Assembly: GCA_050633205.1 (NCBI GenBank)
Contig: JBOEGA010000020.1
Location: 1,387-65,386 of the forward strand
Origin: Methyloligellaceae bacterium
GTDB taxonomy: Bacteria > Pseudomonadota > Alphaproteobacteria > Rhizobiales > CBDHHC01
Reading direction: 5' to 3'
Length of the DNA stretch: 64,000 nt
Position 1 is the first letter of the stretch. Each line of letters begins with the position of its first letter. Positions 5,596 through 57,845 of this stretch are shown piece after piece. Made by a program: the position numbers and the translations under genes. The notes under the pieces are model-generated. The model had not been told where the DNA came from. It did not search any database and saw nothing but the letters and a program-made list of their open reading frames with translations.

Positions 5596-5610
5596 ATGCA
5601 TACTATGCAT
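5596..5610. promoter_or_regulatory. Perfect 15-bp palindrome ATGCATACTATGCAT in the long gltB-like upstream region; candidate operator
   Basis: Read directly from the sequence. No regulator is assigned. Confidence 0.25.
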
Positions 5611-5925
5611 AAAATATGTGTCGGCTGGTAAATACAGGACATACACCATTTCAGCTGTGGCTTTTACCAAAAGGTATAAGACCTGTGATATGGTGTCAGA
5701 GGTTAATTAGAGTCCTGTAATCAATTGCTTTTGTGGAATGCAGATAAGGGCTCTGTATAACCGCAGAAGCTTCTTGCGTCCGGATCATACATCCTGGTGA
5801 TGAGAGCAAACAGCTGACACCCTTGGCTAAAATATAGAGGAAATCCTCAACTGGAGGAAATCCGTAGTTTTTAACATAGCTCAGTACGAAATATCTGAGA
5901 ATGGCAAATGGGTGCCGGACATAGC

Positions 5926-5970
5926 GTTAAGATCAAAGCTGTTGTGTTTTTGTGTCTATCTGATCTTAAC
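5926..5970 (+). promoter_or_regulatory. 10-bp inverted repeat GTTAAGATCA...TGATCTTAAC (25-nt spacer), 49 nt upstream of the gltB-like start; possible leader hairpin
   Basis: Read directly from the sequence. Confidence 0.3.
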
Positions 5971-6018
5971 CCGGATGTTGGGAAGCGTTCTGCCGAGCTT
6001 GTAAAGGGAGGAGACTGA

Positions 6019-17319: not shown

Positions 17320-19083
17320 ATGGGCGTAGCTAGTGCTGTTGAATTGACTGTTGATCAACTTCTTACCGATTATTCCAAAAAACGTAAAATAACAGATGAG
17401 AATAAGCCCACGCTTTTCTCCCTTTATGCAGTCGATAATGTCGTTTTATCCTGCGTAAGAAATGCCTATGACGTCTGGGATGTATTTGTTGATGGTCAGA
17501 ATGATACCGGTATTGATGGTGTCGCTGTTACACTAAATGACCAGTTGATAACAAGTATAGAACAGGCTGAGAAAATAATCTCGTCAGAGCGCGAGTGCCG
17601 CACAAAATTTGTTTTCATTCAGGCAACCATGGATCGTGAGTTCAAAAAGCAGAAAATGACTGCTTTTACTTATGGTGTCTGGAGTTTCTTTAAAAATGAA
17701 GATCTGGGGCCGCAGAATGACAGATTGTTAAAAGTCGTCCAGCTCAAGGACCAGATTCTGCAGATGATTGAGGAAAAGGGCTTTGGGCGTCCCGAGATTG
17801 AATTATATTATGTCTCCAATGGCCAGTGGACCGGAGATGAGGTACTGAAAGGTGCCATACGTGGATCAACGGACCTCGTCAACGAAAATAACAGGTTTCG
17901 CCGTGTAGAGTTTATTCCCCTTGATTTTCGTAATATTCTGGATATGCGCAGGACACTGGTCCGTCGTAATGAAGGAAAGTTGCATACCTATGGCTTAAGC
18001 GAGATGCCGGGGATGCCAGGGGTAAGAAAAGCATTTCTTGGTACAGTCATGGCGGAAGACCTGATTTCTCTTATCCGCCACCCCGTACTCAATCGTGTGG
18101 ACCGCAATGTCTTTCTGGAAAATGTTCGCGGATTTCAGGGGAAAGACAATTTTGTAAATGCAGGCATCAATGAAACTCTGAAGCGCCCTGACTCCAGCCT
18201 GTTTCCTCTTTTGAATAATGGTATTACCATTGTATGTCGTGGACACGAAGAGAGCGGACCCAGACTAAGCATCTTTGACTATCAGATTGTCAACGGCTGC
18301 CAGACGTCTACAATTCTGTTTGAGAACAGTGAAGCACTTGAGGGCCAGGATATTCTGGTACCTGCAAAGATTGTTGTTACCCGAAATGAAGATATTATCA
18401 GCCGTATTATTCGGGGAAGTAACAGTCAGACAACAGTTACAGATGAGCACATATTAAGCCTTCACCCTTTCAACAGAAGACTGGCAGAATATTATCGCGC
18501 TATCACCATAGGAAATGGTCGCGAACGGATATATTATGATATCAGGCAGGGGGAATTTGGCAGTAACCCTCAGCTGGATCCAACACGTATCATTACAATC
18601 AGAGAGCAGATACAGAACTTTGCTTCGATGTTTCTGCGTCGCCCATATGATGCAGTAGATCGCCTTAAAACTTTGCGCGATAGCATTCCTGATCATATTT
18701 TCAATCCTGACCATGCGCTGGATCCCTATTATACATCCTCTCTTGCAATGCACCGCTTTCATGCATTAAGGCGCGATAAACTCATAGAGCCTGAGTTCGA
18801 AAACTTCCGTTTCCAGTTGCTCTATATTCTCCGCCATATACTACTGCCCAGAGAGCTTAACCTGAGTAGCTGGCGGGCTGCACCTATCCTTTGCAATGAA
18901 ATGAATAACAAACTGTGCGACCCTGAAGCGTCTGCCAGATATTACCTGAAGGCATGCGAAATCATTAAAAATACAGCAAAAGAAGTTTTTCACGAAGATG
19001 CTTTACCAAGAGAGTTGGCAGCAAGACATTCCTTTACAGATGCTTTGCAGCAAAGACTGAAAAGTAAAAACTACGGGAGTTAA
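17320..19083 (+). CDS. AIPR-family (abortive-infection phage-resistance-like) protein
   Basis: The central signature LLNNGITIVCRG...FDYQIVNGCQTSTILFE matches the AIPR pattern I recall (NNGITI...IVNGxQT). The gene is flanked by AT-rich non-coding DNA. Confidence 0.65.
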   Translation: MGVASAVELTVDQLLTDYSKKRKITDENKPTLFSLYAVDNVVLSCVRNAYDVWDVFVDGQNDTGIDGVAVTLNDQLITSIEQAEKIISSERECRTKFVFIQATMDREFKKQKMTAFTYGVWSFFKNEDLGPQNDRLLKVVQLKDQILQMIEEKGFGRPEIELYYVSNGQWTGDEVLKGAIRGSTDLVNENNRFRRVEFIPLDFRNILDMRRTLVRRNEGKLHTYGLSEMPGMPGVRKAFLGTVMAEDLISLIRHPVLNRVDRNVFLENVRGFQGKDNFVNAGINETLKRPDSSLFPLLNNGITIVCRGHEESGPRLSIFDYQIVNGCQTSTILFENSEALEGQDILVPAKIVVTRNEDIISRIIRGSNSQTTVTDEHILSLHPFNRRLAEYYRAITIGNGRERIYYDIRQGEFGSNPQLDPTRIITIREQIQNFASMFLRRPYDAVDRLKTLRDSIPDHIFNPDHALDPYYTSSLAMHRFHALRRDKLIEPEFENFRFQLLYILRHILLPRELNLSSWRAAPILCNEMNNKLCDPEASARYYLKACEIIKNTAKEVFHEDALPRELAARHSFTDALQQRLKSKNYGS

Positions 19084-19134
19084 ACTGCACATTAGGGTCA
19101 GAGCCCTGGAAAGAAACCAGAAACGGATAAATAC

Positions 19135-20742
19135 ATGCATCCCAGAAACAACGCGGCGAGTGCACCTGTATTAAGTAAAAAAAAGGCCTTACAAAAATTA
19201 AGAAAAGCGAGACAATTAAAAACAGACAATATTGAAGCTGTTAAAATTTTTGAAGAAGTCCTGGATATTTATCCGGAACTCCCCGAAGCGGTCTCAGGTC
19301 TTGCTTTGATTTATGTGCATCAGGGACGGTTTGAAAAAGCTTATCCTCTTGTACAAAAGGCCGTTAAGCTTGCTCCTGAAGCTGGTCTTTCTTGGTATCT
19401 TATGGGCACCTGTCTTCACAGGCAGTATAAATGCGATGCTGCAATAGCTGCATTTGAAAGTGCAGAAAAAGTCGGTCATAAAACAGCAATACTATTTTCT
19501 GAGAAAGCAATGTGTCTGACAAAGCTCAACCGTTTTGAAGAAGCACAGATAACCATAGATCATGCACTGTTAACAGAACCCGGCTCTTCAAATGTTCTGC
19601 AGGTAAAAGCAGCAATACACGAAATGAAAGGGGAAGTTGATAAGGCTAAGGATTGCTATGAGCGCGTCTTGAAACAGCATCCGGGAGAGCCGACAATTCT
19701 GTTCCGTTTAAGTGATATGAAGCGTCTCTCTCAGGAGAATTTCGAGCAATGCGATATTGCACATGACATCTTTCAGAATAGGTCCCTGACACCTGAGCAA
19801 ATATCTCTACTATTGTTTGCACGTGCTAAAGAAGAAGAGCGTCGGGGAAATTATGATACTGCATTTTCTCTTTACGTACAGGCCAACAAACTAATTCATG
19901 AGGCATACCCCCTTAATCGGGATAATATTACTGCCAGAACCAACGTACATATCAGGGCATTCACCAGAGAATTATTCGAAAACTTCGCCCCCTTCGGTTC
20001 TAAAAGTAAAAAACCGGTATTTATAGTTGGAATGCCACGATCTGGCACGACACTGGTTGAGCAGATACTCTCTTCTCATCCTGACATAATTGCTGCTGGT
20101 GAAATTGAATGCATCGGCGGAATCGAAAAAAAACTTATGAAACTCTCCGGAGAAATGGGTAGTCCCTATCCATATAGCTTTTCTAAAATAGATCCGGGAA
20201 GTTTAAAAAACTTTGCAAGGCATTACACGCAATATGTTGCCCGGTATGTTTCCGAAAGTAGCAAACATATTACTGATAAAATGCCGACCAATTTCTTAAA
20301 CCTGGGACTCATTCATCTTATTTTTCCAAATGCAAAAATCATTCATATCAAAAGAAACCCTCTTGATACCGGTCTGTCCTGTTTTTTCAAAAAATTCCAC
20401 GACTCTGTAAACCTGTCCTTCGCTTTCAATCTCGAAGATATAGGCTTCTTTTATAATGAGTATGAAAGGTTGATGGCGCATTGGCAAAGCCTGATGCCTG
20501 AAGCCATTTTTGATGTGCAGTATGAAGATCTGGTAGAGAATCAGGAGAGTGTTGTACGTAACCTGCTCAAGCATCTGGAATTGGAATGGAATGACAATTG
20601 CCTGGAGTTCTATAACAATACCCGGGGAGTTACTACGGCGAGCATGCATCAGGTACGACAACCCATATATAAAAAGGCCATAGGTAACTGGCAGCGCTAT
20701 GAGAAACATCTGGGAGCGCTAATTGAAATTCTGGAGAAATAG
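19135..20742 (+). CDS. TPR-repeat sulfotransferase family protein
   Basis: The N-terminal half has TPR-like helices. The C-terminal half has the PAPS-binding loop PVFIVGMPRSGTTLVEQILSSHP and RNPLDTGLSCF. Confidence 0.85.
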   Translation: MHPRNNAASAPVLSKKKALQKLRKARQLKTDNIEAVKIFEEVLDIYPELPEAVSGLALIYVHQGRFEKAYPLVQKAVKLAPEAGLSWYLMGTCLHRQYKCDAAIAAFESAEKVGHKTAILFSEKAMCLTKLNRFEEAQITIDHALLTEPGSSNVLQVKAAIHEMKGEVDKAKDCYERVLKQHPGEPTILFRLSDMKRLSQENFEQCDIAHDIFQNRSLTPEQISLLLFARAKEEERRGNYDTAFSLYVQANKLIHEAYPLNRDNITARTNVHIRAFTRELFENFAPFGSKSKKPVFIVGMPRSGTTLVEQILSSHPDIIAAGEIECIGGIEKKLMKLSGEMGSPYPYSFSKIDPGSLKNFARHYTQYVARYVSESSKHITDKMPTNFLNLGLIHLIFPNAKIIHIKRNPLDTGLSCFFKKFHDSVNLSFAFNLEDIGFFYNEYERLMAHWQSLMPEAIFDVQYEDLVENQESVVRNLLKHLELEWNDNCLEFYNNTRGVTTASMHQVRQPIYKKAIGNWQRYEKHLGALIEILEK

Positions 20743-44435: not shown

Positions 44436-45410
44436 TTAATTAGTGTTATTGGGTACGAGATAGTGGATGCTAAAAAGATTTGCCTGATCTGTCCAATATT
44501 TTAATCGTTTCCAGCCTGCTGCCTCTGCAAGTGCACAGAAACTGTCAGTTGTATATTTATGTGAATTCTCTGTATGAATGGATTCTCCTTTTGTAAAGGA
44601 GAAATCCTGCCCGAGAATACTGGCATTCTGGTCAACGAGGCTTTCCAGGTGCATTTCTATGCGCTGGGCCTGTGAGTTATATATCGCTTTATGGCGAAAA
44701 GCCGAAACATCAATATCCCCTCCAAGCTCCCTGTTGATCCTGGCAAGGAGATTCAGGTTAAAGGCTGCTGTAACACCCTCGGCATCATCATAGGCAGGTA
44801 TCAGGATATCGGGAGACTTCAGCAGGTCGACGCCAATAACTAGACCACTCTTGCTGCCCAGAATTTCTTTGGCGCTTTTTAAAAACTCTATCGCATCCTC
44901 AGGCACAAAGTTGCCAATAGTAGAACCCGGGAAAAAGCCCAGATGGTAATTTTCTTTTAAAAGCTCGGGTAAATCAAAAGGCTGCGTAAAGTCAGCATGA
45001 ATTGGATTGATATCTATATCAGGAAAGCAGTCCTGCAGGTCATCTTTCGCGTCATCAAGTGCTGACGAGGAAATATCAATAGGGACATAGGAATGAACCT
45101 GATCAAGGGAATTTATAACATATTTGGTTTTTTTACTGGAGCCGGAACCAAATTCAATAAGCGCAACATTGCCTCCGGCAATAGTCGCAATTTCATCTGA
45201 GTATGTTTTTAATAAACTGATTTCAGTGCGTGTGGGGTAATATTCTTTCAGGTCAGTAATCTCTTCAAACAAAACCGAGCCTTTGTAGTCATATAGAAAA
45301 CGGCTGGGGATAGCTTTATTTTTCTGCTGAAGGCCATTAATGACCTCCAGCGCAAACTCATCATCATGAGAGTTTATAGGTATAGTTATAGGGTCAGTTG
45401 AAATCTGCAT
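44436..45410 (-). CDS. egtD: L-histidine N-alpha-methyltransferase (ergothioneine biosynthesis EgtD)
   Basis: Motifs are PSRFLYDYKGSVLFEEITDLKEYYPTRTEISLL, LIEFGSGSSKKT and FFPGSTIGNF. Confidence 0.9.
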   Translation of the reverse strand: MQISTDPITIPINSHDDEFALEVINGLQQKNKAIPSRFLYDYKGSVLFEEITDLKEYYPTRTEISLLKTYSDEIATIAGGNVALIEFGSGSSKKTKYVINSLDQVHSYVPIDISSSALDDAKDDLQDCFPDIDINPIHADFTQPFDLPELLKENYHLGFFPGSTIGNFVPEDAIEFLKSAKEILGSKSGLVIGVDLLKSPDILIPAYDDAEGVTAAFNLNLLARINRELGGDIDVSAFRHKAIYNSQAQRIEMHLESLVDQNASILGQDFSFTKGESIHTENSHKYTTDSFCALAEAAGWKRLKYWTDQANLFSIHYLVPNNTN

Positions 45411-45499
45411 ATTGGGAAGCCTTTATTTTGATGGGGGGAGGGGGGTGAGCCTGACCCGGAGGAAATAATATCCGGATCAGGTAGGTTAGACACCTTTTG

Positions 45500-46804
45500 T
45501 CAGGAGCTTTCCGCCAGCCGGAGCCCTTTGAACTGCCAGCGTTCTTCAGGGCAGAAGAAATTGCGGTAGGTAGAGCGGATATGTCCGTCTGGCGTTGCAC
45601 AGGAGCCGCCGCGCAGCACATATTTATTGCTCATAAACTTACCATTATATTCACCAACAGCGTCCGCTGTAGGTTGAAAGCCGGGGTAGGGTGTATATGG
45701 GCTTTGTGTCCATTCCCATACATCACCAAAAACTTGCAGCAGATCCTGATCCGCACCCGGAACTGCAGGTAAGGGGCGGATAGCCCCGGAACCAAGTGTA
45801 TTGCCAGTAACCGGCACATTTCTGGCGGCAAGTTCCCATTCAAATTCTGTAGGAAGTCTCTTGCCAGCCCATTTGGAAAACGCATCGGCTTCATAGTAGC
45901 TTACATGCGCAACTGGTGCATTAGGATCAACAGGCTGCAGCCCGCGAAGAGACATCTTGAACCAGCTATCGTCTTTACGTTCCCAGTATAACGGTGTCTT
46001 CCAGCCTTCTGACTGCACAATAGACCAGCCGTCATCAAGCCAGAGCGAAACTGTATCGTAACCGCCATCTTCGATAAACTCCAGCCATTCGCCATTTGTT
46101 ACCAGACGGTTAGCCAGTTTGTAGGGGGGCATATAGTGTTTGTGAACAGGTCCTTCCATATCATATGAGAAGCCTGTCCCGTCATAACCGATATCAACAA
46201 GTCCACCATCAAAACTTTTCCAGGATAGTTCAACAAATGACATGTCAACTTCACGTGGTGCGGGGTTTTTATAGGCAGGGCGCAGCGGATTGACTGCAAA
46301 AACTGTCAGTATATCCGTCAGTAAAAGCTCCTGGTGCTGTTGTTCATGGTTGATCCCGAGTGCAATTAACTCGGCAAGTTCAGCAGGAACATAATCTTCA
46401 TACTGGTTGAGTAACTGATGTAGATGCTCATCAACATACAATCTGTAGTTGCGAACTTCCTGAGCTCCGGGACGTGTCAACAACCCTCTGATAGGACGGG
46501 GATGTCGCTCGCCAACAGAGTTATAGTATGAATTAAAACAATACTCAAAGTCCTCATTAAAACGGACATAACCCTTTAAATACCGGGATAGAATAAAAGC
46601 TTCAAAAAACCAGCTGGTATGAGCCAGGTGCCATTTTGTTGGACTTGCATATATAGCTGACTGAACTACCTGATCTTCATCACTTAAGGGAGCTGCAAGA
46701 GAAGAGGAGAGTTCTCTTGTTTGAAATAATTGTTTGCGGAAGGATTGGGCAGAATACTGAACTTTTTCAGCAGTCTTCTGTTCGGTTGGCATGTAAAACT
46801 CCAT
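45500..46804 (-). CDS. egtB: Ergothioneine biosynthesis sulfoxide synthase EgtB (DinB-like plus FGE-sulfatase domains)
   Basis: Motifs are SPTKWHLAHTSWFFE, INHEQQHQELLLTD, VSYYEADAFSKWAGKRLPTEFEWE and VWEWTQSPY.PYPGF...RGGS. Confidence 0.9.
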   Translation of the reverse strand: MEFYMPTEQKTAEKVQYSAQSFRKQLFQTRELSSSLAAPLSDEDQVVQSAIYASPTKWHLAHTSWFFEAFILSRYLKGYVRFNEDFEYCFNSYYNSVGERHPRPIRGLLTRPGAQEVRNYRLYVDEHLHQLLNQYEDYVPAELAELIALGINHEQQHQELLLTDILTVFAVNPLRPAYKNPAPREVDMSFVELSWKSFDGGLVDIGYDGTGFSYDMEGPVHKHYMPPYKLANRLVTNGEWLEFIEDGGYDTVSLWLDDGWSIVQSEGWKTPLYWERKDDSWFKMSLRGLQPVDPNAPVAHVSYYEADAFSKWAGKRLPTEFEWELAARNVPVTGNTLGSGAIRPLPAVPGADQDLLQVFGDVWEWTQSPYTPYPGFQPTADAVGEYNGKFMSNKYVLRGGSCATPDGHIRSTYRNFFCPEERWQFKGLRLAESS

Positions 46805-47034: not shown

Positions 47035-47592
47035 TTATTTAGGTGCACGTTTGGCTAGAATACGCTGCAGTGTTCTGCGGTGCATGTTGAGGCGTCTCGC
47101 AGTTTCGGAAACATTTCTGTTGCATAGTTCGTAAACCCGCTGAATATGTTCCCACCGAACACGGTCTGCAGACATGGGATTTTCAGGAGGAGCAGCTTTC
47201 TCATTAGGATCAGCCATCAGAGCAGCATAAACATCATCCGCATCAGCAGGTTTTGCAAGATAGTCAATTGCACCCAACTTGATTGCAGTAACCGCAGTCG
47301 CGATATTTCCATAACCGGTCAGTACTACAACACGTGCATCCGGCTTGTGTTCATTAAGGGCTGCTACAAAGTCCAGACCATTACCATCTTCAAGTCTCAT
47401 ATCGACAACTGCATATGCAGGAAGAGTATGGCGGAGTGCATCCATAGCCTCTGAAATAGACTGTGCCATAGTCACGTTAAAACCACGTGTTTCCATCGCA
47501 CGACCAAGACGATGTAAAAACGGCTTGTCGTCGTCTACAATAATAAGGTTTTTATCCCCCGTTAGCGTTGGTTCCTCGCCTGGGTTGTTCAT
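47035..47592 (-). CDS. regA: Redox response regulator, RegA/PrrA/ActR family
   Basis: It has a receiver domain (LIIVDDDKPF...AVVDMRLEDGNG) and the family-typical C-terminal HTH NVSETARRLNMHRRTLQRILAKRAPK. Confidence 0.9.
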   Translation of the reverse strand: MNNPGEEPTLTGDKNLIIVDDDKPFLHRLGRAMETRGFNVTMAQSISEAMDALRHTLPAYAVVDMRLEDGNGLDFVAALNEHKPDARVVVLTGYGNIATAVTAIKLGAIDYLAKPADADDVYAALMADPNEKAAPPENPMSADRVRWEHIQRVYELCNRNVSETARRLNMHRRTLQRILAKRAPK

Positions 47593-47690
47593 ATTATTCT
47601 CCAGATAATTATTGTACTAGGGGCTAAGCCCCTAAATGGCCTGCTGGCATTCTCAGCCTTAGGGCCCGAGCACATACTGATGTGCAATAA

Positions 47691-47709
47691 AGCGAAAATT
47701 CGCTTTTTT
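47691..47709. terminator. Short hairpin AGCGAA-AA-TTCGCT followed by a T-run (+ strand) in the regA-regB intergenic region
   Basis: Read directly from the sequence. A-run and T-run flanks make it usable in either orientation. Confidence 0.45.
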
Positions 47710-47874
47710 GTCGCTGATTAATGCTCATTACGGTTAAATCGCATTCAGGAATGCAGACCGTGAGTGCCTTGAATCAGTTTCTACCCCAAATTTCAGGCTT
47801 ATTTTATTCTGATATTCAGAATTTATCAAATTACAGCTACAGGTTTGATTAACCGCCGCAATCTAATGCTGGTT

Positions 47875-49206
47875 TCAGGAACGTTTATTCCATTCCATAT
47901 CAATTTCAGACCGCCGCCAGGTAACCTCTACTTTAGCGCCCGTATATGGCGCTTTTCTGTTAGAGAGCAAAATTTTCGCTCCGGAACGCTCTAAAAGCGT
48001 TTTAGCAATAAAATATCCTAAACCCAAGCCCTCTCGGTAGGAAATTTGCTCCCCGGCACGAAGTTTATGGGGTCTGGTTGTAACAAATGGCTCTCCCATT
48101 CGGTCCAGAACGTGAGTTGGAATACCCTCACCATCATCATAAATCTTGATAGTGATATATTCCTCATTCCATTGGGCAATGATAATTACCTCGGATTGGG
48201 CAAAATCAACGGCATTCTCAACAATATTACCCAGTCCATAGATAATGCCTGGATTTCTGGCGAGGACAGGCTCCTCCCGTGAGGCCTTGTCTGCATTTGT
48301 GGACGGGTTGGCGGATACCTTGACGCTTTTCTCAAAGACACGGTGTATCTCGACAACTTCCTCTATCAGGTGTGAAACCGGAAGATTGGCAAACATTTCA
48401 TCTTCTTCGCCACCATTATGAGTAAGCGTCTGCAATATCTCCTTACAGCGGTCCGCCTGGGACTTAATCAGCTTGACGTCTTCATAATGGGGGCTTCCTT
48501 CCGGAAACTCCCGCTGCAGTTCCTTGGCAACCACGGTAATCGTACCAAGAGGTGTACCAAGCTCATGGGCTGCTGCTGCTGCCAGTCCGTCAAGTGCAGT
48601 AAGTCTCTGCTCTCTTGCCAGAACCATCTCGGTTGCGGTTAACGCATCTGACATCTGGCGGGTCTCATTGGCAATGCGCCACGAGTAAAAACTGGAAAAT
48701 ACAATGCCGCAAACCACAGATACCCATAAACCAACCTTATAAAGATCCGGCAGTTCCAGAGGACCTTCAGCCCCCCAGGGTAAAGGATACCCGGAAAAAG
48801 CAAGTATAACTGTGCTCACAACCGCAATAGCCCCAAGTGCCAGGGTATTATTAAGTGACTGGGTCGAAGCGGAAATTGTAACTGGCACAGCCATCAGGAA
48901 AATAAACGGATTCTGCAACCCGCCAGTCAGGTAAAGCAATGCTGCAAGCTGAATAATATCGTAACTCAAAACCGCAAAGGCATAATGGTTCCTGAGCCGG
49001 TGTGTTGACGATGGGTACTGAAAGCGAAGAACCACATTTAATGCAGCCGAAAATCCGACGATGGTCAGGCATACGGTAAGCGGCAATTCAAATTTCAGAA
49101 CAAAATACACAAACAGTATCGAAAATAACTGTCCAAAAACTGCCAGCCAGCGAAGGCGGACAATTGTTCTTAATCTTAATCGTGAGGGTGACTGGGTGGC
49201 TGACAT
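47875..49206 (-). CDS. regB: Redox sensor histidine kinase, RegB/PrrB/ActS family
   Basis: It has multiple N-terminal TM helices, the H-box LAAAAAHELGTPL, and the ATPase region GNIVENAVDF...DDGEGI..GLGLGYFI. It is paired with regA and divergent from the SCO/senC gene. Confidence 0.85.
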   Translation of the reverse strand: MSATQSPSRLRLRTIVRLRWLAVFGQLFSILFVYFVLKFELPLTVCLTIVGFSAALNVVLRFQYPSSTHRLRNHYAFAVLSYDIIQLAALLYLTGGLQNPFIFLMAVPVTISASTQSLNNTLALGAIAVVSTVILAFSGYPLPWGAEGPLELPDLYKVGLWVSVVCGIVFSSFYSWRIANETRQMSDALTATEMVLAREQRLTALDGLAAAAAHELGTPLGTITVVAKELQREFPEGSPHYEDVKLIKSQADRCKEILQTLTHNGGEEDEMFANLPVSHLIEEVVEIHRVFEKSVKVSANPSTNADKASREEPVLARNPGIIYGLGNIVENAVDFAQSEVIIIAQWNEEYITIKIYDDGEGIPTHVLDRMGEPFVTTRPHKLRAGEQISYREGLGLGYFIAKTLLERSGAKILLSNRKAPYTGAKVEVTWRRSEIDMEWNKRS

Positions 49207-49274
49207 TGCTATTTATATGTTGTTTCAGATTTTTATATTGATATACAACAGCTTTAGGCGGGTGGCTATTCCTG

Positions 49275-49919
49275 TTGCGGCTCAATATTAATTTAATTTC
49301 CTATATCGGGGTGAAGATGAAAAGATTTGCATTGCTGGCAGTTATAAGTATTTGCTTTCTTCTTGGAGCAGCTATCGCCTGGTTAATTCACGCCCCACAT
49401 ATATCCAGGCCCTTGATACAGCAGAATGCAGAAGTAAAGATTGGAGGCTCTTTCAGTCTTGTTAACCATAAAGGCGAAAAGGTCACCGATAAAAACTATC
49501 AGGGCAAACTCAAACTGGTTTATTTTTGTTATACGAGAAGCACGGATATCTGCCCTGCCGGAATGCAGACCATATCTGCCGTTCTTGAGAGAATTCAGAA
49601 AACTGACCGGAAAATAGCTGCACTCCTTATCACATATGAGCCGGAATATGATACACCCGAAAGGCTCGCATCCTACCTTTCAGCCTACCATCCTCAAATC
49701 ACCGGCCTGACCGGCACCGGAGACCGGATAACAGACGCCATCAAACGCTTTAAAGTGCATTATTCCAGAAAGCCTGCACCTCCCGGCAGCAAGTCTTCAT
49801 ATATCGTAAGCCATTCAACTTACATGTATTTAATGGATGCCAATGGGAAATATTTAGAACATTTTTACCATGGAACGCCGGTCGAAAGAATAGAAGAAAC
49901 TATTCTTAAGTACTTATAG
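49275..49919 (+). CDS. senC: SCO1/SenC/PrrC family protein with a non-canonical metal motif
   Basis: The likely start is ATG 49317 (MKRFALLAVISICFLL). It has a thioredoxin-like fold with KLVYFCYTRSTDICP and a later SHST. Confidence 0.75.
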   Translation: MRLNINLISYIGVKMKRFALLAVISICFLLGAAIAWLIHAPHISRPLIQQNAEVKIGGSFSLVNHKGEKVTDKNYQGKLKLVYFCYTRSTDICPAGMQTISAVLERIQKTDRKIAALLITYEPEYDTPERLASYLSAYHPQITGLTGTGDRITDAIKRFKVHYSRKPAPPGSKSSYIVSHSTYMYLMDANGKYLEHFYHGTPVERIEETILKYL

Positions 49920-49999: not shown

Positions 50000-51367
50000 T
50001 TGGCCTTTATAACAATAAATATAGCTAAAGGCCTCAAACAGAACTGCATTTATCATGCAGAGATACAGGGGGCAGTAATGCTTTACCTTTGGTACGAAAT
50101 GAGCCGCGCAGCATTAAAACCTGCAAGAATGGCAGCAGATTCCTATAAGCATATTCTGAACAATCCATTTAATCCTCTCTTCCACACACCGATTGGCAAA
50201 AGCACAGCAGCAGCTTTTGAAGTATTTGAGCGGACAACCAGAAGATATGCAAAACCTGAATTTGGTATCGAGAGCGTAAAAGTCGATGGCCGAAAGGTAA
50301 ATATTACCGAAGAAATCATCTGGAAAAAATCTTTCTGCCAGCTTCTGCACTTTAAAAAGGAAGTCGGGAAGAAAAAGGTAAAAGATAAATCCCGCCTTCT
50401 GATTGTTGCTCCGATGTCTGGCCATTATGCGACACTGCTTCGTGGCACCGTGGAAGATCTGCTTCCCTACCATGATGTATATATCACTGACTGGCAGGAT
50501 GCCCGGAATGTTCCACTTTATAAGGGCGGCTTTGACCTGAACAGCTACATCGCTTACGTAATAGAGATGCTGGAACTGTTCGATGGCGATGTTCATGTTC
50601 TTGCAGTATGCCAGCCTGCAGTTCCGGTTCTCGCGGCCGTCTCCTTAATGGAAGCAGTAAAAAATCCCTGTGTTCCCTACTCTATGACAATGATGGGTGG
50701 TCCCATTGATACGCGGATCAATCAGACAGCAGTAAACCTTCTGGCAGAAGAGAAGGGAATAGCATGGTTTGAAAAAAACGTTATAACCCATGTTCCCTGG
50801 CCAAATACCGGAGTAGGTCGAAATGTTTATCCGGGGTTTCTGCAGTTATCCGGCTTTATGACCATGAACCTGGACAGGCATGTCACAGCACATAAAGATC
50901 TGTTCTGGCACCTTGTAGAAGGTGATGGGGACTCTGCTGACAAACACAGAACCTTCTATGATGAATATCTCGCAGTAATGGATCTCACAGCAGAATTCTA
51001 CCTGCAGACAGTAGATAATGTCTTCGTCCGGCATAGTCTGCCAAATGGGCGCATGAGATGTGGAACTTCGCCAATAGAACCACAGGCAATCGAACGTGTA
51101 GCACTTCTCACGATTGAAGGTGAAAAAGACGATATCAGTGGTCTGGGCCAGACAGAAGCAGCACACAAATTATGTAAAAACCTGCCGCAAAATCTGAAGA
51201 AACATTATGTTCAGCCCGGTGTCGGTCATTACGGTATTTTTAACGGCTCAAGGTATCGCGAGGAAATCGTCCCTATGATGACAAAATTCATCTATGAAAA
51301 TCAGGGCGATAAAAAAGCCTCAACATATAAATGGCGCCCCATTGAGCCAATCAAACTGCCAAAATAG
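50000..51367 (+). CDS. phaZ: Intracellular polyhydroxyalkanoate depolymerase (PhaZ)
   Basis: The likely start is ATG 50078 (MLYLWYEMSRAALKPARMAAD), preceded by AGGGGG. This is the family-typical N-terminus. Confidence 0.85.
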   Translation: MAFITINIAKGLKQNCIYHAEIQGAVMLYLWYEMSRAALKPARMAADSYKHILNNPFNPLFHTPIGKSTAAAFEVFERTTRRYAKPEFGIESVKVDGRKVNITEEIIWKKSFCQLLHFKKEVGKKKVKDKSRLLIVAPMSGHYATLLRGTVEDLLPYHDVYITDWQDARNVPLYKGGFDLNSYIAYVIEMLELFDGDVHVLAVCQPAVPVLAAVSLMEAVKNPCVPYSMTMMGGPIDTRINQTAVNLLAEEKGIAWFEKNVITHVPWPNTGVGRNVYPGFLQLSGFMTMNLDRHVTAHKDLFWHLVEGDGDSADKHRTFYDEYLAVMDLTAEFYLQTVDNVFVRHSLPNGRMRCGTSPIEPQAIERVALLTIEGEKDDISGLGQTEAAHKLCKNLPQNLKKHYVQPGVGHYGIFNGSRYREEIVPMMTKFIYENQGDKKASTYKWRPIEPIKLPK

Positions 51368-51462
51368 AAATGACTGTTTTTTGTTGCCGTGACCATGTAA
51401 AATAGATGCGATTCTTCAGAGAATGAAGCACAGCATCGTAAATATGGTCACGGTAGAATAAA

Positions 51463-52218
51463 TTGGCGCGATCCCGGCAAAATACGGTTCCCCTTGATGA
51501 GAACTTCTTTGTAGACGGCATTGAAGCACCTGTTCGTATGAAAAGGAATAGCCGTGCCAGGCGCTTTATATTGCGCATCAATGAAAGCCGCAGAGAAGTA
51601 AATCTGACCATCCCCGAACAATCCAGTGAAAAAGCAGCTCTTGATTTCCTGAACCGCAATCACGAATGGGTCAAAAGCCGCCTTGAAAAGCTCCCGGCCT
51701 GTACTCCTTTTCAGGAAGGGGCAGTCATTCCATTGCGCGGCATATCTTACCAGATCCATTTCGTAGAAAAAAACAGCGATAACAGGATAGTCAGAGTATA
51801 CCGGAGCTTTGTTGCAGATGAGATGCCAAAGCTCTTCGTTGCAGGTCTGAAAGACCATGCCCCCAGACGTCTGAAGGACTGGTTAAAAAAACAGGCACGC
51901 ATTGACCTGAAAAAGCAGGTGGATTACCACGCAGCACGGCTGGCCCTTACACCAAAACGCTTGACTGTACGGGATCAGAAAAGCCGCTGGGGTTCCTGCT
52001 CCAGTACTGGTGCGCTGGCCTTTTCATGGCGGCTGATCCTTGCACCTGAAAAAGTTCTCGACTATGTGGCTGCTCATGAAGTCGCTCACCTGCAGGAAAT
52101 GAATCATGGTCCTGACTTCTGGAAGCTCGTAAAACGGACCATGCCTGACTATGAACGGGCTCAGGAATGGCTTAGAGAACATGGCGCTGGGTTACATCGC
52201 TATGGAACAGATCTGTAA
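51463..52218 (+). CDS. YgjP-like M48-family metallohydrolase (DUF45)
   Basis: The motif is SRWGSCSSTGALAFSWRLILAPEKVLDYVAAHEVAHLQEMNHGPDFW. The start is TTG. Confidence 0.85.
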   Translation: MARSRQNTVPLDENFFVDGIEAPVRMKRNSRARRFILRINESRREVNLTIPEQSSEKAALDFLNRNHEWVKSRLEKLPACTPFQEGAVIPLRGISYQIHFVEKNSDNRIVRVYRSFVADEMPKLFVAGLKDHAPRRLKDWLKKQARIDLKKQVDYHAARLALTPKRLTVRDQKSRWGSCSSTGALAFSWRLILAPEKVLDYVAAHEVAHLQEMNHGPDFWKLVKRTMPDYERAQEWLREHGAGLHRYGTDL

Positions 52219-52221
52219 CAA

Positions 52222-53064
52222 TTATGAGCTGATTATCTCTGGCTCATCAAGAACCTGCCTTAACCAGTCAGTAAAATTCTCCATCGGCGCCGGTTGGGAT
52301 TGTGCCCTGTAAATTGCTGTCACTCTCGCCTGTGCCTCAAGTCTGCGAATTGTCTCCAGCACTTCAGGAAATTCCTTTGCTTTTGTAAGTGAAATCGAAA
52401 ATGCAGGTTGCCTGGGATTCGCCCGGCCAGTTTCTATAGCTTTATTGACACGCTTACTGCATCGGCAATTATTATCAGAATTGGCAATCCCGCAATTTGC
52501 AATCATAAAATCTGTGATCTTTTCTCTGGCCCTGGAAAGCCTCTTGCGGAAAGTACTGTTGCTGCATTCCATAACAGCCGCCGCTTCATTATGGTCAAGC
52601 TCAAATATTTCGCCAAGTGTATAGGCCATACGGGCATCATCATCGAGACATTGAAGCATCGCTAGAGTACATCCGATGCGAACCTCTTCCTCCATCAGAA
52701 TTTTGTCAGGCCCCTCATATTCCTCTTCCGCAAGCCCGTCAGCGAGGTCCAGTGAAAATTCATCAAACGTCATATGGTCTGGTTTTTGGCGTCTTTTGAT
52801 ATCTCTCAGGTAATTGCTGGCTATGGAGTATACCCACGTCAAAAAACGGCTGTTCCCCTCAAAACTGCTCAGGTGCGTAATAACTTTCATCAGAATTTCC
52901 TGTGTGGCATCCTCCGCATCTGTAGGGCACAGGAGAAAACGCTGGGAGATTTTGAATATAGCCGGGTGAATATGTTTGATCAGGTTTTCCAGTGCGGCAC
53001 GGTCCCCCGAAAGGGCAAGTGCCGCCAGTTCCGCTTCATAATCCTGAGTACTGGTGGCAGCCAT
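52222..53064 (-). CDS. Sigma-70 family (ECF-like) sigma factor with a ~100-aa C-terminal extension
   Basis: Sigma-2 region: DAEDATQEILMKVITHL...TWVYSIASNYLRDIKR. Sigma-4 region: AAAVMECSNSTFRKRLSRAREK. It is followed by CGIANSDNNCRCSKRV and ~85 more residues. Confidence 0.8.
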   Translation of the reverse strand: MAATSTQDYEAELAALALSGDRAALENLIKHIHPAIFKISQRFLLCPTDAEDATQEILMKVITHLSSFEGNSRFLTWVYSIASNYLRDIKRRQKPDHMTFDEFSLDLADGLAEEEYEGPDKILMEEEVRIGCTLAMLQCLDDDARMAYTLGEIFELDHNEAAAVMECSNSTFRKRLSRAREKITDFMIANCGIANSDNNCRCSKRVNKAIETGRANPRQPAFSISLTKAKEFPEVLETIRRLEAQARVTAIYRAQSQPAPMENFTDWLRQVLDEPEIISS

Positions 53065-53067
53065 ATT

Positions 53068-53469
53068 TTATCCCTCCAGTATTGTTTTTAGTTTCACCAG
53101 TTCTTTCTCCAGAATACCGGACTGCTCAGCCAGAGCTCCTTCCAGCTCTTCAAGAGCAACAGGTGGTGGTGTCAGGATAAAACTGTATGCGCAACTCTGA
53201 TCATCCAGAGGGATCAGTCTGGAATGAGCTTTGCCAACGTCGCCGTTTGGAAAAGTCATAATAGTATCAATAATACCTGTCCTGGGGTCCAGAATATTTT
53301 CCAGCTTTACAGGAACTTCTCCTGCTCCGGTCCTCATCAGGGCTTCGCCATTATCTTTAACTTCCGCAAAGGCGTTCGTCCATTCAGGTAGTTTGCTATT
53401 GTCACTCAGATAATCAAAAGCTTTCTTATAGGGAACAGCCAATGCAATATTTTTAACCTCAAACAACAT
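53068..53469 (-). CDS. Hypothetical protein, possibly an SRPBCC-like fold
   Basis: The 133-aa ORF ends 3 nt before the sigma gene start. The N-terminal pattern AFDYLSDNSKLPEWTNAF is SRPBCC-like. Support is weak. Confidence 0.45.
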   Translation of the reverse strand: MLFEVKNIALAVPYKKAFDYLSDNSKLPEWTNAFAEVKDNGEALMRTGAGEVPVKLENILDPRTGIIDTIMTFPNGDVGKAHSRLIPLDDQSCAYSFILTPPPVALEELEGALAEQSGILEKELVKLKTILEG

Positions 53470-53537
53470 GTTTACTCCAATCTTTTCCAGGTTACATGTT
53501 GTTAGACGTATCTATGATGTCAGGTGTGACCGATAAT

Positions 53538-53924
53538 TTAATTAAACTTTAAGGCCATCTGCATATGCCCTGCCGTGTCATAAAGATTTTTACACGGAGC
53601 AGCCCAGGCAGTGCAGTTCACCATGCGTGTACCTCTGATTTTTCTACAACGCATGATTTTCCTGGAAGCATTGCTCCAGAAATTATAATCATCACCATAT
53701 TTGGAAACTTTTTTCGTCCACACAGAAACAGCACTCATTTCTGCCAGCGTTAATGTATCTCTGACAAAGCCACCAGCTCTCAATGTTGGCTTGCACTGCT
53801 TGTTAAATCCTGACATTTGAAAATAATGCGCAGGAAGATTCTTGGTAAAAGCCACGACTGCCAATAGTGCAAAGGCAGGCAGCAATACCAGGCTGAGAGA
53901 ACTCAGGGAATTATTTTTGCTCAT
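53538..53924 (-). CDS. Small exported 4-Cys protein, paralog A (unknown family)
   Basis: It has an N-terminal hydrophobic signal/anchor. The conserved blocks AEMSAV, KVS..G.DYNFW.NAS, RCRKIRGT.M.NCTA and PCK are shared with 54074..54475. Confidence 0.65.
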   Translation of the reverse strand: MSKNNSLSSLSLVLLPAFALLAVVAFTKNLPAHYFQMSGFNKQCKPTLRAGGFVRDTLTLAEMSAVSVWTKKVSKYGDDYNFWSNASRKIMRCRKIRGTRMVNCTAWAAPCKNLYDTAGHMQMALKFN

Positions 53925-54073
53925 GTTTCACTCGTAAATGCTCTTAGGCGATCTTCCATTATGCATAAAATAGGAAGCGGGTGTAAAAATCCCCGGGGCG
54001 CAGTTTATACTTTATGAAGGGCCAGCATCGCATTGGCTGTAAAATTGAGATAAATTCATGCTTAAAAAGTCCT

Positions 54074-54475
54074 TTATTTTAATCCGGCCATCTGCATTGC
54101 AGGTGCCTTTCCATGAAGGATCTTGCATGGTTTCCCAATAGCTGTGCAATTATACATTACAGTGCCGCGTATTTTCCGGCAGCGAATGCTTTTAAAACTG
54201 GCATTTGTCCAGAAATTATAATCCTGACCATGAGCAGACACCTTGCGGGCCCATGAAACGACAGCGCTCATTTCTGCCATGCTGCGGGAACTTTTGGCAA
54301 AGCCACCGGCATGAGTTAGCTTTTTGCAAAGTTTGGGTGTATTAGCTCGCTCTACAGCAGCTGCATGAGCTTCCCAGAACTTGGAACCGGCAACAAAAAC
54401 AAGTAAGGAAACCGGGGCAAACATGCACAAAGCCATGAACCATACGGTTTTATTTTTGCGAAATGACTGTCTCAT
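54074..54475 (-). CDS. Small exported 4-Cys protein, paralog B (unknown family)
   Basis: It is collinear with 53538..53924 and has the same four Cys positions. Confidence 0.65.
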   Translation of the reverse strand: MRQSFRKNKTVWFMALCMFAPVSLLVFVAGSKFWEAHAAAVERANTPKLCKKLTHAGGFAKSSRSMAEMSAVVSWARKVSAHGQDYNFWTNASFKSIRCRKIRGTVMYNCTAIGKPCKILHGKAPAMQMAGLK

Positions 54476-54671
54476 GCTCTTACCCTACAACATGATGACT
54501 TTCCTTGCTTGGATTCCGGCTTTTAGATTTATTAGATTAAAAATGTAGAAAATAAAATTTGTTGCAAATTTTACTAAAATTTTCGAAAAATCTCCTGCTT
54601 TCCTTGCTGCGCCTCATTCTCTGCGACAATGGCTCATAACAGGGTGTTTGATTTTGAAACACCTCCCCCGG

Positions 54672-54712
54672 AAAAAATGAAAAATCCCGGCGCAAACACT
54701 GTATACGCCGGG
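54672..54712 (-). terminator. Intrinsic terminator of the curlin-repeat gene (CCCGGCG-13 nt-CGCCGGG followed by ATTTTTCATTTTTT on the minus strand)
   Basis: Read on the minus strand, 10 nt after the stop. Confidence 0.65.
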
Positions 54713-54721
54713 ACCTGTTTT

Positions 54722-56254
54722 TTAGTTCTGGGTCAAAGTAACAACGCTGCCGCCAGTCTGATTAATGACGGAATTATTCAGATTTCCTGTTCCACCCTGC
54801 GTAATAACAGCAACATTGTTATCATTATCCTGGGTAATTACGGAGTTATTGAAATTGTTGTCACCTGATTGCAGAACATTCGCTACATTCAAGGAGCCAA
54901 ACTGTGTAATATCGCTGGATTGAGTATTACTAAAGCCAGTTTGTTCAACATTAGCCTGATTATTCGCCCCATCTTGTTGTATGACGGAAATATTGATCCC
55001 ATTTTCACTATCCTGCACTACGATACTCTCGTTATCGAGACCAGTTTGCCCAATATAGGAATCATTTGTGTTGGCAAGACCATTTTGGGTAATATTGGCA
55101 ATATTAACATCTCCATCCTGCGAAAGACTGGAAGTATTTATGCCAGCATCAGCTGATTGCTGGATAGCTGCCTGATTATCAAATCCGTTAATAAAGGCAG
55201 ATGAGGTATTGAAGGCCCCTGTCCCTGTTTGAGCAACTGCTGTTGTATTACCTGTTCCAAGCTGTATGGATAGAGAAGTGTTGGAAGTTGAATCTCCATC
55301 CTGAACAATAATGGCGGCATTTGCGCTACCAGCCTGACTGATTTCAGAATCGTTTGTGCTGCCAATACCAGACTGAACCGTGTCTGCGATGTGACCATCT
55401 CCTGTTTGTGTAGTGCGGGAGATATTATTGTTACCAGTACCGTCCTGTGTCACCGTAGCGCTTTGCGCGATACCATCCTGCGTAACCTCAGCATCAGAAG
55501 AAGTGTTGTCACCTGTTTGCAGAATAGTTGCTACACTGGCCTCTCCTGTTTGATCAACAGTTATAGCATTCAGATTATTAAGCCCTTCCTGAGCAACAAT
55601 TGCAGTCTGCGCATTACCATCCTGAGAAATAGCCGCTACATTATTGTTAAACGTTCCATTTTGTGAAACATCAACCGTATTATCATCTCCATTTTGATCC
55701 ACTGTTGCATCATTGGTATTTGCTTCCCCATTCTGATTTATAATTGCAACATTTTGTGCACCGAACTGAGAAACAGCTGAAGTGTTTGTATTACCAGTTA
55801 CACCCAGGCTATCCTGCAAAACAACAGCACTGTTATTATCGCCATCCTGTATGATAGATGATGTGTTAACAGCATTGTCTGTAGCATTCTGCAATACAGT
55901 GGCATCATTATTTCCACCCAGAGTTGCCTGGGTAATACTTGAAGTGTTACTGGATGTATCTGAGGAACCAATCTGATCTACAGTAGCGCTGTTAAAACCG
56001 CCATCAGTACTTTGGGTAACAGTAGAATCATTCAGCCCCCCATTAGCCTGTTGATTGATAATGGCATCACCTGTACCCGCACCAATCTGGTCAATTGTAG
56101 AATTATTTACTGAAGTAATATTGCCGCCAAGGTCCTGGTTGATCGTGGCGGTATTTACTCCGGCACTGTTAACAACTGAATTATTATCTGCAAATGCAGG
56201 AGTGGAGAATGCAATAAGAGCGATTGCTGTAGTAGCAAGCAAGTGACGTTTCAT
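54722..56254 (-). CDS. Secreted curlin-repeat (CsgA-like) protein with ~37 Q-x-G-x-x-N units
   Basis: The signal peptide is MKRHLLATTAIALIAFSTPAFA. The rest of the protein is made of 11-16-aa units such as AIINQNGEANTND, ATVDQNGDDNTVD, VSQNGTFNNNVA and AISQDGNAQTAIV, matching the curlin S-x5-Q-x-G-x2-N-x-A-x3-Q pattern. Confidence 0.75.
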   Translation of the reverse strand: MKRHLLATTAIALIAFSTPAFADNNSVVNSAGVNTATINQDLGGNITSVNNSTIDQIGAGTGDAIINQQANGGLNDSTVTQSTDGGFNSATVDQIGSSDTSSNTSSITQATLGGNNDATVLQNATDNAVNTSSIIQDGDNNSAVVLQDSLGVTGNTNTSAVSQFGAQNVAIINQNGEANTNDATVDQNGDDNTVDVSQNGTFNNNVAAISQDGNAQTAIVAQEGLNNLNAITVDQTGEASVATILQTGDNTSSDAEVTQDGIAQSATVTQDGTGNNNISRTTQTGDGHIADTVQSGIGSTNDSEISQAGSANAAIIVQDGDSTSNTSLSIQLGTGNTTAVAQTGTGAFNTSSAFINGFDNQAAIQQSADAGINTSSLSQDGDVNIANITQNGLANTNDSYIGQTGLDNESIVVQDSENGINISVIQQDGANNQANVEQTGFSNTQSSDITQFGSLNVANVLQSGDNNFNNSVITQDNDNNVAVITQGGTGNLNNSVINQTGGSVVTLTQN

Positions 56255-56354
56255 ATTTTTAATAACCTATACTATTATTGGATCATCATGATCCATACTC
56301 ACGGTTTGAAAATGTTCCACAGGAACAACTGAATGCAGGCCAAGCGGTATCGTT

Positions 56355-56546
56355 ATGCAATTTTATTAAATTGCACATGTATCAATATCATCCCACTCCG
56401 GAATTGGAATAAAACTGGTGAAATGCCCGACAGCGAGTGCAACCTAGCCGCAAATATTTAAGCCGTATTTAATGGGGAGAGAAAATAGGAAAGAAAAATT
56501 GCATTTTAAAATTTGAATGAGATTCAAAATAAATGCGTATGCAATT
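56355..56546. promoter_or_regulatory. Recurrent ATGCAATT(T) motif, four copies in both orientations, upstream of the curlin-repeat gene
   Basis: Copies lie at 56355-56363 (+), 56368-56376 (inverted, forming an 8-bp IR with the first), 56496-56504 (inverted) and 56539-56546 (+). Confidence 0.3.
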
Positions 56547-56555
56547 AGCACATAT

Positions 56556-56580
56556 CGAAACAGGTTGTAAACCTGTTTCG
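56556..56580 (-). terminator. 11-bp perfect hairpin CGAAACAGGTT-GTA-AACCTGTTTCG, 15 nt downstream of the serA stop
   Basis: Read directly from the sequence. There is no T-tract. Confidence 0.5.
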
Positions 56581-56594
56581 ACAAAACCTTAAGA

Positions 56595-57845
56595 TTATGA
56601 ACTTGGTCCATTTACTATGCGGGACCTGATCGTACCATCTGCTGCTCTCAACTCGGACAGAATATCCTTATCATCCGCAACACTGCCCTGTGCATCAATA
56701 ACCACATAGCCCACATCACCCTGTGTCTGTAGATACTGGCCGGAGATATTAATCTCATGTCCGCCAAAGATATCGTTGACGCGCTTGATGACGCCGGGGA
56801 TATTCCGGTGAATATGAATAAAGCGTGTTGCATTGGGAGCAAGTGGCAACTGAACCTGCGGGAAGTTCACAGCACCCGTTGTTGAACCTACGTCAGAATA
56901 TTCAACAAACTTACGGGCAACCTCGGAACCGATATGCTCCTGAGCTTCCTGCGTTGACCCGCCAATATGTGGCGTCAGAATAACATTATCCAGCCCGCAC
57001 AACACATTCTCAAACGGATCATCATTGGAACCAGGCTCAACCGGGAATACATCAATCGCTGCACCAGCCAGATGCTTGTCCTTTAAAGCACCTGCAAGGG
57101 CGTCAAGGTCAATCACATTACCTCTGGCATTATTGATAAGATAAGAGCCGGGCTTCATCGCACGGATCTCTTTTTCCGTGATCATGTTCTTGGTCTGAGG
57201 TGTCTGCGGAACATGAAGACTGACCACGTCAGATTGCCCTAGCAGGTCATAAAGGTCATTGGCAGGCAACACATTACCGTGCTTTAGCTTATCCATCAGA
57301 TCATGATAAATAACCCGCATCCCCATCGCTTCAGCCAGAACAGCAAGCTGGGAGCCAATATTACCATAACCAACAATACCCAGAGTTTTGCCGCGAACCT
57401 CATTACTGCCAACAGCACTTTTTTCCCATTTACCAGCATGAGCTGCATTGGAACGTGGGAAGATACGGCGGAACAGCATAACAATCTCGGCAATCGTAAG
57501 CTCTGCAACACTTCTTGTATTGGAAAACGGAGCATTAAAAACAGGCACGCCCAGAGTTTGTGCAGCCTGAAGATCAACCTGATTGGTGCCCACTGAGAAA
57601 CAGCCAACAGCGATAAGGCGGTCTGCGCTTTGCAGGACCTCTGCCGTTAATTTGGTGCGCGAACGAATACCCACCATACGAATGCCTTTAAGTGCATCTT
57701 TCAGTTCATCTGCATCAAGTGCCGTTTTCAAATGGGTAATATTCGAGTAACCGGCACCTTTAAGCGTATCAACCGCAGTTTGGGAAATACCTTCCAAAAG
57801 CAGGATAGGAATCTGTTCTTTAGGGAGTGAAAGCGTATTTATCAT
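56595..57845 (-). CDS. serA: D-3-phosphoglycerate dehydrogenase with C-terminal ACT domain
   Basis: It has the NAD-binding motif GIVGYGNIGSQLA, the catalytic region NNARGNVID...TPHIGGST, and a C-terminal ACT-like region. Confidence 0.93.
   Translation of the reverse strand: MINTLSLPKEQIPILLLEGISQTAVDTLKGAGYSNITHLKTALDADELKDALKGIRMVGIRSRTKLTAEVLQSADRLIAVGCFSVGTNQVDLQAAQTLGVPVFNAPFSNTRSVAELTIAEIVMLFRRIFPRSNAAHAGKWEKSAVGSNEVRGKTLGIVGYGNIGSQLAVLAEAMGMRVIYHDLMDKLKHGNVLPANDLYDLLGQSDVVSLHVPQTPQTKNMITEKEIRAMKPGSYLINNARGNVIDLDALAGALKDKHLAGAAIDVFPVEPGSNDDPFENVLCGLDNVILTPHIGGSTQEAQEHIGSEVARKFVEYSDVGSTTGAVNFPQVQLPLAPNATRFIHIHRNIPGVIKRVNDIFGGHEINISGQYLQTQGDVGYVVIDAQGSVADDKDILSELRAADGTIRSRIVNGPSS

Follow-up and report, generated by a model that had tools for sequence, protein, structure and literature searches.

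A stand-alone curlin-repeat protein gene of about 20 repeats in a low-GC Methyloligellaceae bacterium

We analysed a 64-kb stretch of DNA (64,000 nucleotides, hereafter the window) from a marine alphaproteobacterium, represented by a metagenome-assembled genome (MAG) of a low-GC (guanine plus cytosine) Methyloligellaceae (Hyphomicrobiales). The subject of this study is a single gene for a curlin-repeat protein, and the results showed that it is an intact, stand-alone curlin-subunit gene of about 20 repeats, with a divergent sequence and an ordinary architecture. The open reading frame (ORF) that the initial annotation had placed here was confirmed to be intact and to encode 510 amino acids (aa). 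A Sec signal had also been assigned to its N-terminus, and direct reading of the sequence agreed with this, the predicted signal peptide MKRHLLATTAIALIAFSTPAFA being followed by DNN at an AxA cleavage site. In the mature part of about 488 residues, nearly every residue is N, T, S, G, Q, A, D, V or I (N 15%, Q 10%), and Cys is absent. It carries 49 D+E against one K+R, with no Lys, and has a net charge of about -48, an acidity exceeding that of most homologues. The GC content of the gene (0.39-0.45) is in line with that of its neighbours.

An independent assembly (Logan SRR26541433, contig L005) reproduced window positions 51319-57071 at 99.9% identity, and its curlin differs from that of the window by one amino acid. 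A second assembly carries the same gene, and the repeat gene is therefore not mis-assembled. The contig collection has no record that matches the protein exactly, and the protein's own cluster was not among the homology-search matches, though the Logan contig encodes a near-identical copy.

The curlin signature, which had been recognised from the repeats by eye, was upheld by a profile search with Curlin_rpt (PF07012), which matched four stretches of the protein (91.3 bits, cut-off 20.7 bits, E=3.3e-26). The sole solved structure with sequence similarity was a curlin, 8C50, matched over three stretches (E=5.8e-24). The best NCBIfam models were those of CsgB (NF007506, 129 bits) and CsgA (NF007470, 64.4 bits), and neither reached its equivalog cut-off (165 and 160 bits, respectively). 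The protein belongs to the curlin family but, since the scores lie under both cut-offs, it is no orthologue of the enterobacterial subunits. It has been documented that the A and B subunit types are indistinguishable outside Gammaproteobacteria (PMC3521004).

We then assessed the anatomy of the repeats. The initial annotation had counted about 37 Q-initiated units and set them against the five repeats of Escherichia coli CsgA. The units are indeed repeat units, but they are not full repeats: they are half-repeats, each a single beta-strand, and about 20 canonical repeats are present. They alternate between 13 and 11 aa, each closing with an N-x-Psi-x-Psi-x-Q strand, and the canonical repeat here is a strand-arc-strand unit of 13 + 11 = 24 aa. 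For a fair comparison with E. coli CsgA, the figures are therefore about 20 and 5 repeats rather than 37 and 5; the repeat number is four times that of E. coli CsgA, not seven times. We identified 38 canonical strands and a further, degenerate one near residues 343-359. N-x-Psi-x-Psi-x-Q motifs occurred 38 times, compared with 7.5 +/- 2.4 in composition-preserving shuffles, and the strict Q-x-G-x-x-N motif occurred 17 times, compared with 0.8 +/- 0.9. Self-identity of the protein peaked at lags of 24, 48 and 72 residues, where it reached 26-29%; shuffles did not exceed 16%. The 13/11 spacing and the 24-aa period agree with the published curlin motif, N/S-x-Psi-x-Psi-x-Q, and with the published repeat of two strands and 23 +/- 5 aa (Sleutel 2023, PMC10192328).

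Compared as DNA, the repeats share only 60-80% identity, and no tandem repeat was detected in the gene by Tandem Repeats Finder. A recent repeat expansion was considered and rejected on these two grounds. The DNA repeats have diverged, and yet 38 of about 40 strands show the motif; hence the array is an old one that has been maintained.

A beta-solenoid had been expected from the repeats, and the predicted structure is consistent with one. AlphaFold2 (AF2), run with a 44-sequence alignment, predicted 40 regularly spaced strands in 20 rungs (mean predicted local distance difference test score 77, predicted template modelling score 0.67). A single low-confidence break, at residues 320-336, lies between two solenoid blocks, and the signal region was modelled at low confidence, with one short helix at residues 9-12. 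The 44-sequence curlin alignment contains no conserved stretch of 7-10 columns. The repeats reach the last residue of the protein, and neither a capping domain nor any other domain was seen; uncapped solenoid ends drive the end-to-end polymerisation of curlins (PMC10192328).

The description of the protein as giant was overstated, as 20 repeats lie near a known secondary maximum and 22 of 43 homologues are at least as long. The repeat number of CsgA-like proteins ranges from 4 to 62 and has secondary maxima near 15 and 22 (PMC10192328), and an earlier survey recorded up to 22 (PMC3521004). The 43 homologues, found among 5.8 billion clusters, have a median length of 550 aa (22 of them at least 510 aa, the longest 847 aa), and phmmer against 1.84 billion representatives returned 636 relatives at E <= 1e-3, some of them 1436 and 1632 aa long. 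Among the relatives listed, identity is at most about 50% over the matched stretches. The top-scoring of these relatives are 35-39% identical. The protein is thus one more divergent long curlin, with a best identity under 40% among 15 billion proteins, in a family whose known members have 4 to 62 repeats.

The terminator that had been assigned to the gene was confirmed as a hairpin at 54716-54682 with a U-tract extending to 54672. Its centroid fold has a free energy of -21.4 kcal/mol (z = -2.9), and none of 200 shuffles was as stable; the consensus scanner did not report it, as the loop is longer than 8 nucleotides (nt). A consensus promoter scan found no convincing sigma-70 site in 56255-56554 pointing into the curlin gene. 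Searching of 54400-56700 against Rfam revealed no riboswitch or RNA family, and the fold of the 316-nt leader was not significant (z = -0.7). Both palindromes upstream of the gene (Table 1) are candidate operator sites. The gene has a terminator and 300 bp of upstream DNA to itself, and serA ends in its own terminator just beyond this region; the monocistronic organisation proposed earlier, as predicted from the structure of the transcription unit, is therefore well supported.

Table 1. Positions of the curlin gene and associated features in the window
Feature	Position	Strand	Details and basis
Curlin-repeat protein gene	54722..56254	-	510 codons plus stop; about 20 repeats of 24 aa; ORF list, Pfam, PDB 8c50, AF2
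Sec signal peptide, residues 1-22 (MKRHLLATTAIALIAFSTPAFA)	56189..56254	-	Predicted cleavage after AFA; sequence reading
Intrinsic terminator of the curlin gene	54672..54716	-	13-bp GC-rich stem, then UUUUUCAUUUUUU; RNA fold
Private upstream region, non-coding	56255..56554	-	300 bp; two perfect palindromes inside
Palindrome TGCAATTTTATTAAATTGCA	56356-56375		111 bp upstream of the curlin ATG; unique in the 64-kb window
Palindrome GGATCATCATGATCC	56280-56294		33 bp upstream of the curlin ATG; unique in the 64-kb window
serA terminator hairpin	56555..56581	-	Perfect 12-bp inverted repeat; bounds the variable cassette on its upstream side
Lineage-specific cassette (upstream region, curlin gene and terminator)	54607..56554	.	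Slot between serA and Cys1

The neighbours of the gene are those named in the initial annotation, with serA (2-Hacid_dh and ACT domains) on one side and genes for two small Cys proteins (Cys1 and Cys2) on the other. A relative, L006 (GCA_041156685.1), has the same gene order at about 73% nucleotide identity. The common order is DUF2157, GDYXXLXY, DUF4401, CreD, serA, a variable slot, Cys1, Cys2, a 133-aa ORF and an extracytoplasmic function (ECF) sigma factor. By blastn, positions 5-5399 of L006 correspond to window positions 61937-56555, and positions 9870-12222 to window positions 54606-52252. Nothing between these blocks is alignable (window 54607-56554 against L006 5400-9869), and the alignment is interrupted at two points of the window, 56554/56555, which coincides exactly with the serA terminator hairpin, and 54606/54607. 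The slot of L006 contains three genes with ABC_tran, FtsX and membrane-fusion protein family matches, and no curlin gene. As L006 holds an ATP-binding cassette (ABC) exporter in place of the curlin, the curlin cassette is therefore lineage-specific, and the locus documents that curlin genes move as self-contained cassettes.

Cys1 and Cys2 (53538-54475, reverse strand) are small exported paralogues of 133 and 128 aa with four conserved Cys. They are 53% identical to each other, fall into three clusters in total among 5.8 billion, and matched nothing in Pfam, NCBIfam or the PDB. Cys1 shows 100% identity to ACRBBN_04030, a hypothetical protein of a genome named 'MAG: Methyloligellaceae bacterium'. 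The pair is conserved together with the 133-aa ORF (53068-53469) and the ECF sigma factor of 280 aa (52222-53064), which bears a Cys-rich C-terminal extension, and these four genes may form a lineage-restricted ECF-sigma module. Cys1 and Cys2 were also considered as a curlin accessory protein or as CsgH, and this was rejected, as they match no family and are kept in L006. Their conservation in a relative without a curlin gene indicates that they are therefore not curlin partners. NF041112, which recognises the 121-aa CsgH proteins of loci L004 and L008 (44 and 70 bits), does not recognise Cys1, Cys2 or the 133-aa ORF.

It had been claimed that no csg gene lies within 8 kb of the curlin gene, and this holds across the whole 64-kb window. 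About 50 window ORFs were scanned with Pfam, and all 714 ORF segments of at least 40 aa were searched by tblastn and phmmer with CsgF, CsgG and CsgH from alphaproteobacterial operons as queries. CsgC had no Pfam match among the scanned ORFs. A Caulobacter holdfast (HfaA/HfaB/HfaD) context was not seen either, as the window contains no CsgG/HfaB-family ORF. When the protein database was searched with a CsgG profile, there were 6041 matches, of which the best 120 were all Erythrobacter-like. The assignment of the gene product as a Sec-exported, amyloid-type beta-solenoid of curlin repeats, encoded monocistronically and with no csg machinery nearby, is supported.

To place this separation among relatives, the neighbourhoods (+/- 10 kb) of nine homologues were inspected. 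Five of them lie in csgF-csgG-curlin(s) operons (Erythrobacter NAP1, Roseovarius, Sulfitobacter noctilucicola, Marivita and L013), and csgH was also detected in L004, L008, L010 and L013. The remaining four (P0002, P0005, Algimonas P0019 and P0037) are orphans and share no common neighbour. A 98-aa ORF following the orphan Algimonas curlin was evaluated as a CsgF C-terminus and dropped (BLASTP, E=0.15). At another orphan homologue locus, L002, three curlin-like genes (308, 498 and 712 aa) lie at 5796-12139, with an OmpA-family gene at 7116-8060 and no csgF or csgG within 10 kb.

The statement that csg genes are normally clustered in alphaproteobacteria was too strong, given the curlin-only genomes in Table S1 of Dueholm 2012 (PMC3521004). 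In that table, Agrobacterium, Bradyrhizobium and Chelativorans have curlin genes, some with CsgH, and no CsgF or CsgG. The same study proposed 'different pathways to amyloid biogenesis' and reported that additional curlin copies are often located away from the main operon. A later survey showed that, outside enterobacteria, CsgG is missing from a sizeable share of CsgA-positive genomes, with a total of 1033 such genomes (Sleutel 2023, PMC10192328). Both the size of the protein and its separation from csg genes are thus inside the already documented range. The initial annotation concluded that either the machinery is encoded elsewhere or a different route is used; this is logically sound, and since curlin-only genomes have already been published, it therefore restates a published open point.

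Evidence that bears on this choice came from contigs resembling the window. Homologue P0009, which resembles the window curlin in its signal peptide and, like it, ends in ...TQN, lies within the L013 operon, which has the order csgF-csgG-curlin320-curlin239-curlin150-x225-csgH. L013 has a GC content of 0.44 and a tetranucleotide correlation to the window of r = 0.948, compared with 0.945 for the syntenic relative L006, and L013 and L006 belong to the same assembly series. For every other homologue locus checked, r was below 0.2, except for L014 ('MAG: Methyloligellaceae bacterium'; GC 0.39, r = 0.85), in which csgF, curlins and csgH are present and which is the nearest named genome to the CsgG of L013 (77% identity). 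The operons of L013 and L014 indicate that Methyloligellaceae therefore own canonical alphaproteobacterial curli operons, and the presence of csgFG operons in Methyloligellaceae-type contigs favours machinery encoded elsewhere in the genome. The CsgG of L013 (8528-9808) is a protein of 426 aa with a K/R/Q-rich C-terminal tail of about 130 residues, which is absent from the roughly 320-aa CsgG of Erythrobacter and Roseovarius.

We therefore consider it probable that the protein is an extra subunit that is served by a distal CsgFG and forms a curli-type fibre. The unfolded subunit would cross the inner membrane via Sec, to judge from its signal peptide, and would transit the periplasm as an unfolded chain, as expected from knowledge of the family. 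Passage across the outer membrane would occur through CsgG/CsgF, with csgFG presumed to be present elsewhere in this genome, presumably in a canonical alphaproteobacterial csgF-csgG-curlin-csgH operon such as those of the related Methyloligellaceae-type contigs. The chain is predicted to fold into a long, very acidic beta-solenoid of 20 rungs, which would polymerise end to end through its uncapped ends into curli-type amyloid fibres. At the surface, it may serve as an extra or alternative fibre subunit in a biofilm or adhesion matrix. A dependence of assembly on divalent cations, suggested by the extreme negative charge, is speculation.

Several results weigh against an extra subunit served by distal machinery. 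No CsgG (PF03783) was found next to the curlin or in the window by Pfam, tblastn or phmmer. CsgF (PF10614) and CsgE (PF10627) had no Pfam match in the window, and phmmer with two CsgF sequences found no window match. CsgH was equally lacking in the window, with no PF21112 match and negative phmmer searches with two CsgH sequences. The window also contains no second curlin gene, as curlin queries matched 54725-56266 only, and no Methyloligellaceae-named curlin paralogue was present among the 43 homologues, many of which are nameless. The kinship of L013 to the window lineage is indirect, being based on composition, provenance and the L014 label and not on shared markers. The net charge of about -48 without any Lys could hinder self-assembly in the absence of counter-ions, and when the PDB was searched with the AF2 model in Foldseek, no structure matched significantly. 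The published curlin-only alphaproteobacteria and CsgG-less CsgA genomes count against this explanation as well.

Those published genomes point to an alternative in which the present genome has no CsgG/CsgF and the curlin either takes another outer-membrane route after Sec or nucleates itself. The absence of any csg accessory gene in 64 kb and the four orphans among nine homologues, which have no neighbouring gene in common, are consistent with it, as are the CsgA/B-only alphaproteobacteria (some with CsgH) for which alternative pathways were proposed (PMC3521004) and the 1033 CsgA-positive genomes without CsgG (PMC10192328); it has also been discussed that long repeat arrays may need no nucleator (PMC3521004). 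However, low-GC Methyloligellaceae-type contigs have csgF-csgG-csgH beside their curlins, the window locus has no nearby CsgH or second curlin, no candidate alternative channel adjoins the curlin gene, and an orphan position is by itself expected of extra subunit copies. CsgG independence is thus possible but doubtful here. The specific proposal that this genome has neither CsgG nor CsgF, and that a lone, Lys-free, acidic curlin of 20 repeats follows CsgG-independent export and assembly or self-nucleates without CsgB, is unlikely. If true, it would provide a minimal one-gene test case for an alternative curli-type amyloid pathway, which has been suspected in alphaproteobacteria since 2012 and never demonstrated. 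Should the genome have no CsgG/CsgF, a single gene equipped with a promoter and a terminator of its own would offer a clean system for studying export and nucleation in curlin-only alphaproteobacteria, a question dating from Dueholm et al. 2012.

The unusual composition raises the prospect of a role outside fibres, with the protein acting as a monomeric acidic beta-solenoid in the periplasm or outer membrane that binds cations, coats the surface or serves as an adhesin. Its 49 D+E against one K+R and its lack of Cys would suit such a role, and so would the low-confidence break at residues 320-336 that parts the solenoid into two blocks, the scores under the CsgA and CsgB equivalog cut-offs and the lack of a nucleator or channel gene nearby. 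Homologues in csgFG-csgH operons are nevertheless also acidic (less extremely) and equally long, and the open solenoid ends, with repeats to the last residue, no cap and no other domain, speak for a polymer, making a non-fibre role improbable. A silent or decaying gene, acquired horizontally with its partners left behind, would account for the absence of the cassette from the syntenic relative L006, for the absence of any homologue above about 40% identity among 15 billion proteins and for the lack of a consensus sigma-70 promoter upstream. We regard this as very improbable, because the frame of 510 codons is intact and retains its signal peptide and terminator, 38 of about 40 strands still carry the motif although the DNA repeats have diverged, the GC content (0.39-0.45) is like that of the neighbours, and two assemblies differ by one amino acid.

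Several other loci in the window were recorded. A glutamate-synthase-like ORF of 1835 aa (within 1514-13292, forward strand; Pfam GATase_2, Glu_syn_central, Glu_synthase and GXGXG) is directly followed by a CysJ-like flavodoxin/FAD/NAD reductase and preceded by another FAD/NAD reductase and a tandem pair of C-methyltransferases; such a combination of genes is unusual. A gene for an HlyC-family RTX-toxin acyltransferase lies at 13460-13990 (forward strand), and the window ORFs that were scanned include no RTX toxin gene. At 17320-20742 (forward strand), an AIPR (abortive-infection phage-resistance) gene is followed by a TPR-sulfotransferase gene. An ergothioneine-type pair, EgtD-like (Methyltransf_33) and EgtB-like (DinB_2 and FGE-sulfatase), was found at 44436-46804 (reverse strand), and regA/regB/senC redox regulon genes follow it at 47035-49919.

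Finally, we compared the window curlin with known systems. Like the curlin-only loci of Agrobacterium (atu4766-4768), Bradyrhizobium and Chelativorans, the window locus has no CsgF or CsgG in the vicinity. Those loci hold at least two curlin genes, whereas the window locus holds one; the Agrobacterium and Chelativorans loci include csgH and the Bradyrhizobium rows list curlins only, and the window locus is without CsgH. With CsgA and CsgB of E. coli and Salmonella (type VIII secretion), the protein shares Curlin_rpt and a predicted strand-arc-strand solenoid. It differs from them in having about 20 repeats rather than 5 and in scoring under the equivalog cut-offs, and it lacks their glycine-rich N22 targeting segment and their csgBAC/csgDEFG context. 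It resembles 8C50, the long CsgA homologue of the curlin R15.5 type (Sleutel et al. 2023), in being long and multi-repeat. The remaining comparison is with the subunits of alphaproteobacterial csgF-csgG-curlin(s)-csgH operons, exemplified by Erythrobacter sp. NAP1, Roseovarius, Sulfitobacter noctilucicola and Marivita, and also by Hyphomicrobium sp. MC1 (Dueholm 2012). Unlike these, the window curlin has no csgF, csgG, csgH or sibling curlin in 64 kb. The operon subunits are 320-850 aa long and 27-37% identical to the window curlin, and like them it has a Sec signal, the N-x-Psi-x-Psi-x-Q double-strand repeat, an acidic composition and no N22-like leader.

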